From assembly GCF_988242995.1 (NCBI RefSeq), contig NZ_OZ547043.1: a DNA stretch of 64,000 nucleotides. One strand, written 5' to 3'. The translations under genes and the position numbers were made by a program. Below the pieces are notes generated by a model. The model was given only the letters and a program-made list of their open reading frames with translations, was not told the origin of the DNA and searched no databases. Shown one piece after another: positions 7,406 through 61,611 of the stretch (within the stretch, counting starts at the first letter, position 1; each line of letters starts with the position of its first letter).

Positions 7406-8299
7406 ATGGAACAGCTGCGTGCCGAATTAAGCCATTTACTGGGCGAAAAACTCAGTCGTATTGAGTGCGTCAATGAAAAAGCGGATACGGCGTTGTGGGC
7501 TTTGTATGACAGCCAGGGAAACCCAATGCCGTTAATGGCAAGAAGCTTTAGTACGCCCGGAAAAGCCCGACAACTGGCATGGAAAACCACCATGCTGGCA
7601 AGAAGTGGAACTGTCCGTATGCCGACTATTTATGGTGTGATGACGCATGAAGAACACCCCGGCCCCGATGTCCTGCTACTGGAGCGGATGCGTGGTGTTT
7701 CGGTGGAGGCACCAGCCCGAACACCAGAACGCTGGGAACAGCTCAAAGATCAAATCGTTGAAGCCTTACTGGCCTGGCACCGTCAGGACAGTCGCGGTTG
7801 CGTCGGCGCGGTCGACAATACTCAGGAAAATTTCTGGCCCTCATGGTACCGGCAACATGTTGAAGTGCTATGGACCACGCTCAATCAGTTCAATAACACC
7901 GGTCTAACGATGCAGGATAAGCGGATCCTGTTTCGTACTCGCGAATGTCTCCCGGCATTATTTGAAGGCTTTAACGACAATTGTGTGCTGATTCACGGTA
8001 ACTTCTGTTTACGCAGCATGCTGAAAGATTCGCGCAGCGATCAGTTACTGGCGATGGTCGGGCCGGGACTAATGCTTTGGGCACCGCGAGAATACGAACT
8101 GTTCCGACTAATGGATAATTCTCTGGCGGAAGATTTGCTCTGGAGTTACCTGCAACGCGCGCCAGTGGCGGAGTCGTTCATCTGGCGGCGTTGGTTGTAT
8201 GTGTTATGGGATGAAGTTGCGCAACTGGTTAATACCGGACGATTTAGTCGGCGCAACTTCGATCTGGCATCAAAATCACTCTTGCCGTGGCTCGCCTGA
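7406..8299 (+). CDS. ycbJ: Putative phosphotransferase/kinase-like protein YcbJ
   Basis: 297 aa ORF; recognised as YcbJ; 3' end overlaps convergent elyC by 24 bp. Confidence 0.88.
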   Translation: MEQLRAELSHLLGEKLSRIECVNEKADTALWALYDSQGNPMPLMARSFSTPGKARQLAWKTTMLARSGTVRMPTIYGVMTHEEHPGPDVLLLERMRGVSVEAPARTPERWEQLKDQIVEALLAWHRQDSRGCVGAVDNTQENFWPSWYRQHVEVLWTTLNQFNNTGLTMQDKRILFRTRECLPALFEGFNDNCVLIHGNFCLRSMLKDSRSDQLLAMVGPGLMLWAPREYELFRLMDNSLAEDLLWSYLQRAPVAESFIWRRWLYVLWDEVAQLVNTGRFSRRNFDLASKSLLPWLA

Positions 8300-9055
8300 C
8301 GAACTTTTTAGCCACTGCCAGATGCGGCCAAGCGTTTCATAGCCAACACGATCGCTATGCATCAACCAGACTGGAGAAGGGATTGCCCGTTCCCACGGGT
8401 TAAGCGGCGAGTCGATGGCCAACTGATTCGCCGGGGCTGGCAGCGGATTTAACCCTTCCTGCTGAAAAAAGATCATCGCCCGCGGCAAATGAGACGCGGA
8501 TGTCACCAGCAGGAAAGGGGCGTCACCAATTGCCTGTTTCACTGCCGCAGCTTCTTCTTCGGTATCTTTTGGCAAATCCAGAGTGATAATTTGCTCGCGC
8601 GGCACGCCCAGCGATTGCGCAACTCGGGCACCTACTTCGGCTGTACTCACCGTATTGGTTTTTGCTACGCCTCCCGTGAAGATCAGTTTTGATCCCGGAT
8701 TTTCGCGCCATAAGCGAATACCTTCATTCAGGCGGGGCAGACTGTTATTGATTAAATTCGAGCTTGGTGCCCACTGCGGGTTCCAGGTATAACCACCTCC
8801 GAGCACCACGATATAGTCCACTTTTTGCGAATTATTCCATGTCGGATAGGTGCTTTCGATGGGACGCAGCAGGCGGTCGGCTACCGGTTGCAAACTCAAT
8901 AACAAGAGCGCCAGCCACCCAATGCTAATAAAAATCTTCCCGGTTTTTTGAAAACGGCTAAACCACAGCAGCGCCAGGCCAGCGCCAATAATCAACAACA
9001 TTAGCGGAAGTGGCAGCAACATATTGCCAATCACTTTTTTCAGTGTAAAAAGCAT
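8276..9055 (-). CDS. elyC: Envelope biogenesis factor ElyC (DUF218 family)
   Basis: 259 aa; N-terminal TM helices then DUF218-type domain; ATG (minus strand) at 9055-9053. Confidence 0.92.
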   Translation of the reverse strand: MLFTLKKVIGNMLLPLPLMLLIIGAGLALLWFSRFQKTGKIFISIGWLALLLLSLQPVADRLLRPIESTYPTWNNSQKVDYIVVLGGGYTWNPQWAPSSNLINNSLPRLNEGIRLWRENPGSKLIFTGGVAKTNTVSTAEVGARVAQSLGVPREQIITLDLPKDTEEEAAAVKQAIGDAPFLLVTSASHLPRAMIFFQQEGLNPLPAPANQLAIDSPLNPWERAIPSPVWLMHSDRVGYETLGRIWQWLKSSSGEPRQE

Positions 9056-9065
9056 CCTTTCTGGT
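9055..9065. repeat. Target-site duplication (left copy) of IS4, tcctttctggt
   Basis: Identical 11-mer directly abuts both IS4 ends (9055-9065 and 10492-10502); an extra flanking a makes it arguably 12 bp. Confidence 0.85.
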
Positions 9066-9083
9066 TAATGCCGATCAGTTAAG
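9066..9083. repeat. IS4 left terminal inverted repeat
   Basis: taatgccgatcagttaag; reverse complement of right end with 2 mismatches. Confidence 0.85.
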
Positions 9084-9149
9084 GATCAGTTGACCGATCC
9101 AGTGGCTGTGTAAGAATCCGGAAACGCTCACTTGTTTCCGGATTTTTTT

Positions 9150-10478
9150 ATGCACATTGGACAGGCTCTTGATCTGGTATCCCGTTACGATTCTCTGCGT
9201 AACCCACTGACTTCTCTGGGGGATTACCTCGACCCCGAACTCATCTCTCGTTGCCTTGCCGAATCAGGTACTGTAACGCTACGCAAGCGCCGTCTTCCCC
9301 TCGAAATGATGGTCTGGTGTATTGTTGGCATGGCGCTTGAGCGTAAAGAACCTCTTCACCAGATTGTGAATCGCCTGGACATCATGCTGCCGGGCAATCG
9401 CCCCTTCGTTGCCCCCAGTGCCGTTATTCAGGCCCGCCAGCGCCTGGGAAGTGAGGCTGTCCGCCGCGTGTTCACGAAAACAGCGCAGCTCTGGCATAAC
9501 GCCACGCCGCATCCGCACTGGTGCGGCCTGACCCTGCTGGCCATCGATGGTGTGTTCTGGCGCACACCGGATACACCAGAGAACGATGCAGCCTTCCCCC
9601 GCCAGACACATGCCGGGAACCCGGCGCTCTACCCGCAGGTCAAAATGGTCTGCCAGATGGAACTGACCAGCCATCTGCTGACGGCTGCAGCCTTCGGCAC
9701 GATGAAGAACAGCGAAAATGAGCTTGCTGAGCAACTTATAGAACAAACCGGCGATAACACTCTGACGTTAATGGATAAAGGTTATTACTCACTGGGACTG
9801 TTAAATGCCTGGAGCCTGGCGGGAGAACACCGCCACTGGATGATACCTCTCAGAAAGGGAGCGCAATATGAAGAGATCAGAAAACTGGGTAAAGGCGATC
9901 ATCTGGTGAAGCTGAAAACCAGCCCGCAGGCACGAAAAAAGTGGCCGGGACTGGGAAATGAAGTGACTGCCCGCCTGCTGACCGTGACGCGCAAAGGAAA
10001 AGTCTGCCATCTGCTGACGTCGATGACGGACGCCATGCGCTTCCCCGGAGGAGAAATGGGGGATCTGTACAGTCATCGCTGGGAAATCGAACTGGGATAC
10101 AGGGAGATAAAACAGACGATGCAACGGAGCAGGCTGACGCTGAGAAGTAAAAAGCCGGAGCTTGTGGAGCAAGAGCTGTGGGGTGTCTTACTGGCTTATA
10201 ATCTGGTGAGATATCAGATGATTAAAATGGCGGAACATCTGAAAGGTTACTGGCCGAATCAACTGAGTTTCTCAGAATCATGCGGAATGGTGATGAGAAT
10301 GCTGATGACATTGCAGGGCGCTTCACCGGGACGTATACCGGAGCTGATGCGCGATCTTGCAAGTATGGGACAACTTGTGAAATTACCGACAAGAAGGGAA
10401 AGGGCCTTCCCGAGAGTGGTAAAGGAGAGGCCCTGGAAATACCCCACAGCCCCGAAAAAGAGCCAGTCAGTTGCTTAA
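9150..10478 (+). CDS. insG: IS4 transposase (InsG-like, DDE family)
   Basis: 442 aa from ATG at 9150 (track ORF starts 6 codons earlier at an alternative TTG); translation matches IS4 transposase; stop lies inside right IR. Confidence 0.93.
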
Positions 10479-10491
10479 CTGACTGGCATTA
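10474..10491. repeat. IS4 right terminal inverted repeat
   Basis: cttaactgactggcatta. Confidence 0.85.
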
Positions 10492-10502
10492 TCCTTTCTG
10501 GT
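10492..10502. repeat. Target-site duplication (right copy) of IS4, tcctttctggt
   Basis: Exact repeat of 9055-9065. Confidence 0.85.
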
Positions 10503-10627
10503 TCCTTTTTTAACCATATAGCAAGGGATCGCCAGCGATATTACACCAGACGGGTTCATTCTCGCCGTGGCTGTGACAAAATAGCGTCTTTATCAGAAAA
10601 CGTCTTAGCCAACCGGTGGAGAAAGCA

Positions 10628-11413
10628 ATGCAGGATCGCAATTTTGATGATATTGCGGAAAAGTTTTCCCGTAACATTTACGGCACCACCAAAGGGCAGC
10701 TTCGACAGGCTATTCTGTGGCAGGATCTCGATCGCGTGCTGGCGGAAATGGGCCCGCAAAAACTGCGTGTGCTGGATGCTGGCGGTGGAGAAGGGCAGAC
10801 CGCAATCAAAATGGCTGAGCGCGGGCATCAGGTCATTTTATGCGATCTTTCTGCGCAGATGATCGACCGCGCAAAACAGGCGGCAGAAGCAAAAGGTGTG
10901 AGCGACAACATGCAATTTATACATTGCGCCGCTCAGGATGTTGCTTCGCATTTGGAAACGCCCGTTGATCTGATATTGTTCCATGCGGTGCTCGAGTGGG
11001 TGGCCGATCCCCGCAGCGTATTACAGACCCTGTGGTCAGTGTTGCGTCCAGGCGGTGTGTTGTCGTTAATGTTCTACAATGCGCACGGCTTGCTGATGCA
11101 TAACATGGTCGCCGGGAATTTTGATTACGTGCAGGCGGGAATGCCGAAAAAGAAAAAACGGACGCTTTCGCCAGATTATCCACGCGACCCGGCGCAGGTT
11201 TATCTGTGGCTGGAAGAAGCTGGTTGGCAAATTATGGGTAAGACAGGCGTTCGCGTGTTTCATGATTATCTGCGCGAGAAGCACCAGCAGCGCGACTGCT
11301 ATGAAGCATTACTTGAATTAGAAACGCGTTATTGCCGTCAGGAACCGTATATTACCCTGGGGCGTTATATTCATGTCACCGCGCGCAAACCGCAGAGCAA
11401 GGATAAAGTATGA
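10628..11413 (+). CDS. cmoM: SAM-dependent methyltransferase CmoM (formerly SmtA)
   Basis: 261 aa from MQDRNFDD; methyltransferase motif VLDAGGGEG; stop overlaps mukF start. Confidence 0.93.
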
Positions 11414-21396: not shown

Positions 21397-21433
21397 AAAA
21401 AAGCCCGCTTTTTAAGCGGGCTTCATTGTTTTT
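21397..21433. terminator. Bidirectional intrinsic terminator between gloC and aspC
   Basis: aaaaaagcccgc-ttttta-gcgggctt hairpin flanked by A-run and T-rich tract. Confidence 0.8.
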
Positions 21434-24100: not shown

Positions 24101-24448
24101 TAAGGAACTTTGTGAACACCGTCATATTTCCATAGAAGCGTGATGATATTTACAGCAATATTTATCTATTTATATGATTTCATTATATTTAAATTAACTA
24201 AACGGAAATTTTGTTTCTGATGGAAACTTTATCGACCTGGCACTAAATCCTCGTTCAGACATCCAGAACGCCAAAAAATAGTATGAAAATTGTGCTATCA
24301 GCTAAGAAAAAACTAATCCGCAATAAGAATGCGGATTATTTTTTGTGCGCAAATGTTGCAGTGTAATATTCCGTAACAGGATGATCGTTATGGTGGGGTT
24401 GCAAATAGATTGCTTGACTTAACAAACAGATAACTTGACAGAAAGGAT

Positions 24449-24476
24449 AAAAAAAGAGCCAGCGGGCGCTGGCTCT
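24449..24476 (-). terminator. Rho-independent terminator of asnS
   Basis: agagccagc-gggc-gctggctct hairpin followed on minus strand by T7. Confidence 0.8.
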
Positions 24477-24489
24477 TGAAGACGCTAAA

Positions 24490-34417: not shown

Positions 34418-34553
34418 ACTCTCTCCTTATAACCAATTGTTCTTTTTTTGTTAACATTGATAGCAATTCGGTCAGTCTGACAGAGGTGGCCCGCGAGTCG
34501 AAATGATTTATCTGAGGAAGAAAAGCCAAAAAAAGCATAAAAAAAGCGCAATA

Positions 34554-34569
34554 AGAAAACGTTTGCTAT
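34554..34569. promoter_or_regulatory. Candidate PurR box in pyrD upstream region
   Basis: agaaAAACGTTTgcta contains the central AAACGTTT core of the PurR operator consensus; about 85 bp upstream of pyrD ATG. Confidence 0.4.
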
Positions 34570-34653
34570 TTATTGCCACAGGTCAATTCCCTTTTGGTCC
34601 GAACTCGCACATAATACGCCCCCGGTTTGCACACCGGGAATCCAGGAGAGTTC

Positions 34654-35664
34654 ATGTACTACCCCTTCGTTCGTAAAGCCCTTTTCCAGCTCGATCCAGA
34701 GCGCGCTCATGAGTTTACTTTTCAGCAATTACGCCGTATTACAGGAACGCCGTTTGAAGCACTGGTGCGGCAGAAAGTGCCTGCGAAACCTGTTAACTGC
34801 ATGGGCCTGACGTTTAAAAATCCGCTTGGTCTGGCAGCCGGTCTTGATAAAGACGGGGAGTGCATTGACGCGTTAGGCGCGATGGGATTTGGATCGATCG
34901 AGATCGGTACCGTCACGCCACGTCCACAGCCAGGTAATGACAAGCCGCGTCTCTTTCGTCTGGTAGATGCCGAAGGTTTGATCAACCGTATGGGCTTTAA
35001 TAATCTTGGCGTTGATAACCTCGTAGAGAACGTAAAAAAAGCCCATTATGATGGCGTCCTGGGTATTAACATCGGCAAAAATAAAGATACGCCGGTGGAG
35101 CAGGGTAAAGATGACTATCTGATTTGTATGGAAAAAATCTATGCTTATGCGGGATATATCGCCATCAATATTTCATCGCCGAATACACCGGGATTACGTA
35201 CTCTGCAATATGGCGAAGCGCTGGATGATCTCTTAACCGCGATTAAAAATAAGCAAAATGATTTGCAAGCGATGCACCATAAATATGTGCCGATCGCAGT
35301 GAAGATCGCGCCGGATCTTTCTGAAGAAGAATTGATCCAGGTTGCCGATAGTTTAGTTCGCCATAATATTGATGGCGTTATTGCAACCAATACCACACTC
35401 GATCGTTCTCTGGTTCAGGGAATGAAAAATTGTGATCAAACCGGTGGCTTAAGTGGTCGTCCGCTTCAGTTAAAAAGCACCGAAATTATTCGCCGTTTAT
35501 CACAGGAATTAAATGGTCGCTTACCGATCATCGGTGTTGGCGGCATCGACTCGGTTATCGCTGCGCGTGAAAAGATTGCTGCGGGGGCCTCACTGGTGCA
35601 AATCTATTCTGGTTTTATTTTTAAAGGTCCGCCGCTGATTAAAGAAATCGTTACCCATATCTAA
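34654..35664 (+). CDS. pyrD: Dihydroorotate dehydrogenase (quinone) PyrD
   Basis: 336 aa from [11 protein letters not shown]; track ORF starts 9 codons upstream. Confidence 0.96.
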
Positions 35665-61523: not shown

Positions 61524-61611
61524 TGGCGGAAGCGCAGAGATTCGAACTCTGGAACCCTTTCGGGTCGCCGGTTTTCAAGACCGGTGCCTTCAACCGCTCG
61601 GCCACACTTCC
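61524..61611 (-). tRNA. serT: tRNA-Ser (anticodon UGA)
   Basis: Minus strand reads GGAAGTGTGGCCGAGCGGTTGAAGGCACCGGTCTTGAAAACCGG...CGCTTCCGCCA: 88 nt, long variable arm, encoded CCA, anticodon loop CUUGAAA. Confidence 0.97.

Follow-up and report, generated by a model that had tools for sequence, protein, structure and literature searches.

In the 64,000-nucleotide stretch of contig NZ_OZ547043.1 (NCBI RefSeq assembly GCF_988242995.1) that we analysed, hereafter the window, a complete IS4 element sits between the start codon of elyC and the signals for expression of this gene, at an IS4-type target. We consider it very likely that this arrangement results from a recent transposition, private to the strain, which has spared cmoM-mukFEB on the other side of the element and has left elyC as a probable knock-down or null allele, as judged from the sequence signals that were displaced.

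The element is flanked by a perfect 11-bp direct repeat (TCCTTTCTGGT), whose left copy reaches into the elyC start codon: its first base, at 9055, is the complement of the A of the ATG, and it is followed by the 10 native bases that precede the ATG (9056-9065) and then by the end of IS4. When placed on the uninterrupted sequences of K-12 and 042, the two flanks share exactly 11 bp, and removal of IS4 and of one repeat copy yields a 135-bp elyC-cmoM intergenic region that is identical to that of both strains. A longer, 13-nt repeat (9054-9066 and 10491-10503) was rejected as a 13-bp duplication, its outer base on each side being coincidental and belonging to the IS4 termini. Target duplications of IS4 are 11-13 bp long. 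The duplication is given as about one helix turn in PMC2266710. On the far side of the element, the native sequence holds the displaced elyC Shine-Dalgarno, any elyC promoter and the cmoM promoter, and cmoM keeps 125 native nt 5' of its ATG, or 136 when the repeat copy is included.

These results are in agreement with a preliminary description of the sequence, which had proposed an intact 1426-bp IS4 between elyC and cmoM (now supported by its ends, its complete identity to the K-12 copy and its open reading frame), a perfect 11-bp direct repeat, a compact intergenic region of about 135 bp after removal of the element, an IS4 end 10 bp from the elyC ATG and about 125 bp of native upstream sequence on the cmoM-mukFEB side. 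The alignment to K-12 that it had suggested gave both the exact junction and the empty site. As to the coordinates it had assigned, 9054-10502, the end is right and the start is one base off, 9055 being correct. Since insertion sequence copies are classic sources of misassembly, the element could also have been misplaced by the assembler, but a misplaced copy would not yield a perfect 11-bp duplication whose copies overlap exactly on the K-12 empty site; both junctions, moreover, fall exactly at the canonical IS4 termini and the site fits the IS4 target pattern (see below), so that an assembly artefact is extremely improbable. The features of the region are collected in Table 1.

Table 1. Features of the elyC-cmoM region and of the inserted IS4 (positions in the window).
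Feature	Position	Strand	Basis
elyC (ycbC), 259 aa, intact, DUF218 envelope biogenesis factor	8276..9055	-	ORF list; same ATG in RefSeq K-12, 042, AF39
Target-site duplication, left copy, 11 bp TCCTTTCTGGT	9055..9065	.	Repeat search and empty-site alignment
IS4, complete, 1426 bp	9066..10491	+	100% identity to K-12 IS4/insG and terminal inverted repeats
IS4 left-end control region	9090..9147	+	Promoter scan and folding
IS4 transposase (InsG) ORF, 442 aa from ATG	9150-10478	+	ORF list, Pfam; RefSeq/PGAP-style start is TTG 9132 (448 aa)
Terminator-like element, inside IS4 right end, elyC strand	10454..10487	-	Terminator scan and folding
Target-site duplication, right copy, 11 bp TCCTTTCTGGT	10492..10502	.	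Repeat search and empty-site alignment
Native elyC-cmoM intergenic sequence, far side of IS4	10503..10627	.	Identical to K-12
cmoM promoter	-35 TTCATT 10555-10560; extended -10 TGaCAAAAT ending 10582; TSS about 10588/9	+	PWM scan and published TSS
cmoM (smtA), first gene of cmoM-mukFEB	10628..11413	+	ORF list

The element is the known IS4 (IS4 family, IS4 subgroup) at a new site, and not a new kind of element. Its 1426 bp are 100% identical to the copies of K-12 MG1655, C600 and many other E. coli. Its terminal inverted repeats (9066-9083 and 10474-10491; IRL, TAATGCCGATCAGTTAAGG) match at 16 of 18 positions when TAATGCCGATCAGTTAAG is compared with TAATGCCAGTCAGTTAAG, a pattern for which 0 matches are expected by chance in shuffled sequence. 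The transposase reading frame is uninterrupted and contains the Nterm_IS4 (PF13006, E 7.6e-33) and DDE_Tnp_1 (PF01609, E 3.7e-31) domains. Sequence, inverted repeats and transposase are the same as those of K-12 IS4 (insG, b4278), the founder of the IS4 family, and the target duplications belong to one length class, at 11 bp for the present copy and 12 bp for that of K-12; the sole difference is the location, the K-12 copy lying elsewhere in the chromosome and the present one between elyC and cmoM. IS4 is active in K-12 but seldom transposes, as it gave 8 of the 758 insertions that arose in mutation-accumulation lines (PMC5009759), and the elyC-side copy, being identical to the one that gave rise to these 8 insertions, would be expected to be competent for transposition.

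The position of the insertion is explained by the target preference of IS4, a point that, like the restriction of the allele to this strain, goes beyond the preliminary description. Ten independent IS4 sites have a common shape, in which an A-run, about 3 nt, a duplication of 11-14 bp, about 3 nt and a T-run follow each other. AAA or TTT is located 8-10.5 nt from the centre of the duplication at all 10 sites, and both runs are found at 6 of them, the background in the window being 10.3% for either run and 0.34% for both. This pattern was computed from genomes; an AAA-N~20-TTT target was reportedly described for IS4 by Mayaux and colleagues in 1984. The elyC-side site has both runs, together with the recurrent central CCnTT/nCTGG motif. 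The A-run is complementary to codons 2-3 of elyC and the T-run to the A-rich ribosome-binding region. Other natural E. coli sites (typA-yihL, mdh-degS, bamD-raiA, adhE-tdk, yhjB-treF, in yicI and in prophage genes) share the element and the A-run/T-run shape described above for the target, the central motif being frequent among them. Most of them, however, are terminator-like palindromes located 3' of genes, where an insertion does little harm, whereas the elyC site lies where a gene begins and takes its runs from codons 2-3 and the ribosome-binding region, with the consequence that the gene is uncoupled from its expression signals. The site is thus a clean example of start-proximal codons and an A-rich ribosome-binding region imitating the terminator-type A-run/T-run targets of IS4.

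The insertion is a recent, strain-private IS4 transposition, that is, an ordinary insertion mutation. Of 5426 complete E. coli genomes, a collection that does not include Shigella and in which roughly one genome in two has IS4, 5424 hold the elyC-cmoM site uninterrupted and 0 hold the IS4 junction (GCATCCTTTCTGGTTAATGCCGATCAG). No exact match to the junction was detected in metagenome contigs or in species-representative genomes, and all 10 places that encode an identical ElyC have cmoM directly next to elyC, as at the empty site. The nearest complete genomes are those of NY1601, AF39 and Z1323HEC0462. That the event is recent is indicated by AF39, a close relative which has the empty site, only 3 mismatches over the 9066-nt left flank and an identical ElyC. 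A K-12 strain with an additional, laboratory-acquired IS4 was considered and rejected, the identity to MG1655 being only 96.6-98.1%. No literature joining elyC and IS4 was found.

The insertion might instead have been selected, if less ElyC were advantageous in this lineage, for instance via the allocation of precursors to enterobacterial common antigen (ECA) or peptidoglycan. Loss of ElyC in K-12 does lead to higher ECA-PG and altered envelope properties (PMC8609368), and elyC is dispensable at 37 C (PMC3879167), as would suit an adaptive inactivation. The counts given above nevertheless provide no parallel events, the allele is a singleton that is missing even in AF39, and the target preference fully accounts for the position. 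An advantage of reduced ElyC is thus a very unlikely origin for this allele.

On the elyC side, the coding sequence itself is unaffected: the encoded ElyC is identical to that of AF39 and differs from that of K-12 by one residue (G251S). The intact coding sequence, without decay, would fit either a very recent insertion or a kept function. The expression signals, in contrast, are displaced. The candidate Shine-Dalgarno AAGGA, which the preliminary description had placed at about -16 to -11 and had rightly considered removed, is located at -15..-11 (complement of 10503-10507) and is replaced in the IS4 allele, the best anti-Shine-Dalgarno pairing in the -25..-10 region changing from -5.6 to -1.7 kcal/mol. 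The sole AAGGA left to elyC overlaps the AUG; an alternative start making use of it was rejected, as no in-frame AUG, GUG or UUG is suitably spaced from it, and Met12 was not retained either, as initiation there would lose the N-terminal KK segment that precedes TM1. With 10 native nt left, any upstream promoter is necessarily displaced, as had also been proposed at the outset for the native elyC promoter.

Neither a simple scan nor a position-weight scan detected an outward sigma-70-like promoter in the terminal ~130 nt at the left end of IS4, and a hybrid promoter made with the flank has no room for a -10 within 10 nt. This is weak evidence, because the same scans reveal no convincing sigma-70 elyC promoter in the native intergenic region either, the best candidates of the position-weight scan being weak, with -10 elements that end 85-90 nt 5' of the ATG. 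No published elyC transcription start was found in the + strand part of the Cappable-seq supplement, in the 3'-end mapping paper, in the Shigella M90T TSS paper or in the Conway 2014 supplements, and the portion of the SMRT-Cappable-seq operon list that was covered has no b0920 entry. As far as promoter terms go, the two ElyC papers (PMC3879167; bioRxiv 10.1101/2024.04.10.588480) do not describe an elyC promoter. No Rfam RNA family was detected in the region.

Both ends of IS4 contain elements that could affect transcription across it. At the right end, a terminator-like element on the elyC strand has a stem of 11 bp (10487-10462) with TCTTTTTC behind it; it folds at -22.5 kcal/mol (z -3.3), the tail after this stable hairpin being UCUUUUUC. 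At the left end, a promoter-like TTGACC-16-AAGAAT with a TG (9090-9117, promoter scan) is overlapped by a strong hairpin (9112-9147; fold -29.7 kcal/mol, z -6.4), which is followed by a T-run and the transposase ATG, and which may act as a barrier against transcription entering IS4 from outside.

Taken together, these features make it probable that expression of elyC is abolished or much lowered. The lack of a recognisable outward promoter in the left end and the right-end hairpin strengthen the idea of a natural hypomorph, which the preliminary description had raised as a possibility. IS4 would part the gene from its promoter and from a properly spaced Shine-Dalgarno, leaving 10 native nt; transcripts from the displaced native promoter would enter the right end of IS4, where the hairpin and U-run are predicted to terminate them; and the left end has no recognisable outward promoter. 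Because promoter and Shine-Dalgarno are lost, a terminator-like hairpin lies at the right end and an outward promoter is missing, ElyC would probably be made at a very low level, and the allele would be a knock-down or null at the regulatory level, in a gene that is not required at 37 C.

IS4 could alternatively maintain or rewire elyC expression. In this case, a promoter hidden within the element, outward or antisense, would read out via the left end, and translation would start from the native AUG by means of the purine-rich AGAAAGG, or from Met12. Weak promoter-like sites are indeed present on the elyC strand 214-284 nt inside IS4 (PWM scan), the left-end hairpin has on this strand a tail, UCUUACAC, without a U-run and would be a poor terminator allowing some read-out, the coding sequence is still intact, and outward promoters are known in the IS4-family elements ISAba1 and IS1999 (PMC9330008). 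However, 0 sites on the outward strand of IS4 pass simple sigma-70 criteria, and the candidates from the PWM scan, whose spacers or hexamers are poor, do not stand out from the background (99.6-99.95th percentile). The properly spaced Shine-Dalgarno is lost whatever the promoter, the leftover AAGGA overlapping the AUG, and IS4 itself is absent from the elements with outward promoters listed in the review (PMC9330008). We therefore regard such a rewiring as unlikely. In the neighbour-activating elements ISAba1, IS1999 and ISEcp1, the first two of which belong to the same superfamily, an insertion sequence end likewise lies directly next to the start of a gene; in IS4, by contrast, no -35/-10 pair was found within ~130 nt of the left end, and the expected effect is silencing and not activation.

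On the other side, cmoM-mukFEB should be unaffected, as the mapped start site and the core promoter are kept. The transcription start, published for cmoM at U00096.2 972721 / U00096.3 973497 (Cappable-seq / SMRT-Cappable-seq data), lies 86-87 nt past the right repeat. It could be argued that the main effect falls on these genes, through loss of upstream regulatory DNA or read-through from the transposase gene, since IS4 and cmoM-mukFEB have the same orientation and since the right-end hairpin is followed, on the + strand, by a merely moderately U-rich tail (ATTATCCTTT). Transcription of the IS4 transposase is weak, though, and the start site, -35 and extended -10 of cmoM are located 50-90 nt beyond IS4, in sequence identical to K-12, all of which makes a major effect on cmoM-mukFEB very improbable.

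If elyC expression is lost, the phenotype would be expected to be that of the engineered K-12 elyC deletion (Keio; Paradis-Bleau et al. 2014), which grows normally at 37 C. Loss of elyC in K-12 causes lysis and a defect in peptidoglycan synthesis at ~21-22 C (PMC3879167; bioRxiv 10.1101/2024.04.10.588480). The present allele differs from the deletion in that it lacks the upstream signals alone and retains the whole coding sequence, so that some expression might persist and precise excision could bring about reversion, and in that the background is not K-12 (97-98% identity).

One unlikely possibility is that the near-ideal IS4 target at the elyC 5' end has been kept empty in the 5426 genomes by purifying selection, and not by low IS4 activity, in which case the strain would carry a rare viable natural knock-down of elyC. 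If this were true, compensatory changes might exist, for example in ECA synthesis or in the expression of murA, uppS or mrcB, and the strain would offer a natural suppressor background for the study of the poorly understood DUF218 protein ElyC. Under the preferred reading of an ordinary insertion mutation, current knowledge on IS4 and ElyC is unchallenged and the value of the finding lies mainly in the characterisation of the strain and in its annotation, in which elyC would be called intact although its promoter and ribosome-binding site are probably lost. The strain may act as an elyC mutant, with cold-sensitive lysis, an altered peptidoglycan/ECA balance and beta-lactam sensitivity.

The element lying between elyC and cmoM is IS4 itself, as it shows every testable defining feature. 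It is 100% identical over its full length to IS4/insG of K-12 MG1655, C600 and many wild strains; its left terminus, TAATGCCGATCAGTTAAGG, recurs as an inverted copy at the other end, with 16 of the first 18 positions matching (zero matches of this kind in shuffles of the window), and its 442-aa ORF (9150-10478) carries the Pfam domains Nterm_IS4 and DDE_Tnp_1. The preliminary description, which had reported an intact element within perfect 11-bp direct repeats, is thus borne out. The repeat finder returned 13 nt at the flanks, but this count takes in one terminal IS base at either end (T...A); the duplication is therefore 11 bp, and a 13-bp duplication was rejected.

Layout of the elyC-cmoM locus (window coordinates)
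Feature	Coordinates	Strand	Description	Basis
elyC	8276-9055	minus	259 aa, ATG 9055-9053	sequence reading and ORF list
Target duplication, left copy	9055-9065		11 bp, TCCTTTCTGGT	
IS4	9066-10491		1426 bp	
Target duplication, right copy	10492-10502		identical 11 bp, TCCTTTCTGGT	
Native intergenic DNA between right duplication copy and cmoM			125 nt	
cmoM	ATG at 10628		followed by mukF, mukE, mukB	

When both IS4 flanks are aligned to K-12 and 042, they overlap by exactly these 11 bp. Removal of the element and one repeat copy, which had been estimated to restore a spacer of about 135 bp, gives exactly 135 bp, identical in K-12 and 042, with the insertion point between K-12 positions 973411 and 973412. 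Of 5426 complete E. coli genomes, 5424 contain the reconstructed empty site (500-nt query) at essentially full length, and none gives a full-length match to the left-junction query (500 nt). The exact 33-nt junction has no match in one-genome-per-species contigs or JGI metagenome contigs, and cmoM directly adjoins at all ten places read where an identical ElyC is encoded. The site is previously unrecorded for IS4.

The window is not K-12, a candidate rejected at an identity of only 96.6-98.1%, and just three complete genomes reach 99% identity or more to it over 25 kb. One of these, AF39 (human rectal swab, UK), has the empty site, 3 base differences in the 9066-nt left flank and an identical ElyC protein. 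Given the perfect repeats, the reference-identical IS and the undecayed elyC, we infer a recent insertion, confined to the strain or clone of the window.

Elsewhere in the window, the elf/ycb fimbrial operon (seven genes, elfADCG-ycbUVF) is missing at 34479-34555, where about 75 nt bridge the sides of what is, in K-12, a stretch of about 7 kb between ssuE and pyrD; this deletion is common to AF39, and the equally close NY1601 still has the operon. The alignment also breaks between gloC and aspC, where about 160 nt of K-12 (24321-24484 of its comparison locus) are absent at 21402-21412. At gathering level, Rfam gives only two matches in the window, a PyrD leader upstream of pyrD (34586-34659, +) and a tRNA (61527-61611, -), and none near the IS4 site.

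As had been described, only 10 native nt are left 5' of the elyC ATG, so that any upstream elyC promoter is now 1.4 kb away. In the native mRNA, AAGGA at -15..-11 pairs with the anti-Shine-Dalgarno sequence (-5.6 kcal/mol); a second AAGGA, at -4..+1, likewise pairs; it extends into the AUG and is unusable for that codon. The insertion exchanges the upstream AAGGA for sequence of the IS4 left end, in agreement with the earlier claim, and the best pairing in -25..-10 is then -1.7 kcal/mol. Transcripts from the displaced native promoter would enter the right end of IS4 and there meet, on the elyC strand, an 11-bp hairpin about 5 nt inside, followed by UCUUUUUC. On the elyC strand, neither the consensus scan nor the position-weight scan detects a promoter-like site within the terminal ~130 nt of the element; weak candidates appear only 214-284 nt inside (position-weight scan). 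The left-end hairpin at 9112-9147 has no U-run on the elyC strand and would therefore not stop outward transcripts. Stable hairpins are present at both IS4 ends (9090-9147; 10454-10487), so placed that a transcript coming from outside would meet hairpin and U-run. The left-end pair is read on the + strand and directly precedes the transposase ATG; the right-end pair is read on the - strand. Transcripts that begin at the promoter-like site of IS4 would not form the left hairpin, because this site coincides in part with its 5' arm.

The same scans give no convincing native elyC promoter in the intergenic region, the best candidates by position weight having -10 elements that end 85-90 nt upstream of the ATG, and no elyC start site turned up in the accessible parts of the transcription-start literature; predictions of this kind therefore carry little weight at this locus. 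The most likely predicted outcome is that ElyC is strongly reduced or lost. In K-12, ElyC loss is tolerated at 37 C, but at room temperature it leads to lysis and impairs peptidoglycan synthesis (PMC3879167); it also alters ECA-PG levels (PMC8609368).

On the other side, the 125 nt of native upstream DNA match what had been claimed and contain the mapped start and promoter in unaltered sequence. Published Cappable-seq gives a + strand start at U00096.2 972721 and SMRT-Cappable-seq starts the b0921-b0923 operon at U00096.3 973497. This cmoM start falls at ~10588/9 in the window, 39-40 nt upstream of the ATG and 86-87 nt past the duplication, and it agrees with the best position-weight candidate, TTCATT-16-TGaCAAAAT, whose -10 ends at 10582. 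Converted with an offset of 777 nt, which we take to be that between the two genome versions, the first position lies at most 1 nt from the second. As the promoter is in unchanged sequence, we expect cmoM-mukFEB to be unaffected by IS4.

In other genomes, the first BLAST matches continued beyond the IS4 end into flanking sequence, which prompted a target survey: IS4 copies from ten independent loci were taken and their empty sites rebuilt to derive a pattern. In the common architecture, a duplication of 11-14 bp is preceded by an A-run and followed by a T-run, each ~3 nt away, and CCnTT/nCTGG is frequent as a central motif. AAA and TTT both lie 8-10.5 nt from the duplication centre at 6 of the 10 sites, and at least one of them at all 10, against 0.34% (both) and 10.3% (either) of positions in the window. 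This agrees with the AAA-N20-TTT rule of the 1980s IS4 literature. Most sites are terminator-like palindromes directly 3' of genes (typA-yihL, mdh-degS, bamD-raiA, adhE-tdk, aroA-ycaL). Natural insertions (comparison loci L006, L007, L010, L012, L015 and others) cluster in such bidirectional-terminator-like palindromes at gene 3' ends, in the order A-run, stem, loop, stem, T-run. IS4 duplications are typically 11-13 bp; those of L006 and L012 are longer, at 14 bp. The elyC site, gtAAAAAgca-TCCTTTCTGGT-tccTTTTTTaa, fits the architecture fully, its A-run being the complement of elyC codons 2-3 (CTT TTT) and its T-run that of the A-rich ribosome-binding region. The position of IS4 upstream of elyC requires no selective explanation.

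Many complete E. coli genomes, such as AST215 (L001, 1001-2525), carry a 1525-bp IS4-like variant ~13 kb upstream of elyC. It occupies a terminator-like palindrome in the aroA-ycaL interval and has a 13-bp duplication, CGGCACATTGCCG. Because of it, these genomes rank at the top of the 25-kb search despite their empty elyC site.

The element and the kind of event are already known. IS4 in the window would work in the same way as IS-caused regulatory insertion mutations generally, and does not resemble the outward-promoter activation by some IS4-family relatives. IS4 is not among the elements with outward promoters listed in a published review, whereas ISAba1 and IS1999 are. The original observation is confirmed, and its cautious interpretation as a possible natural hypomorph is supported within the reach of sequence analysis. 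IS4 is mobile, yet its transposition in K-12 is rare: it accounted for 8 of the 758 new insertions recorded in mutation-accumulation lines (PMC5009759). That a near-ideal IS4 target at the elyC 5' end is empty in thousands of genomes could reflect selection or merely low IS4 activity. In the strain of the window, elyC is a gene that is intact to annotation, yet probably off.
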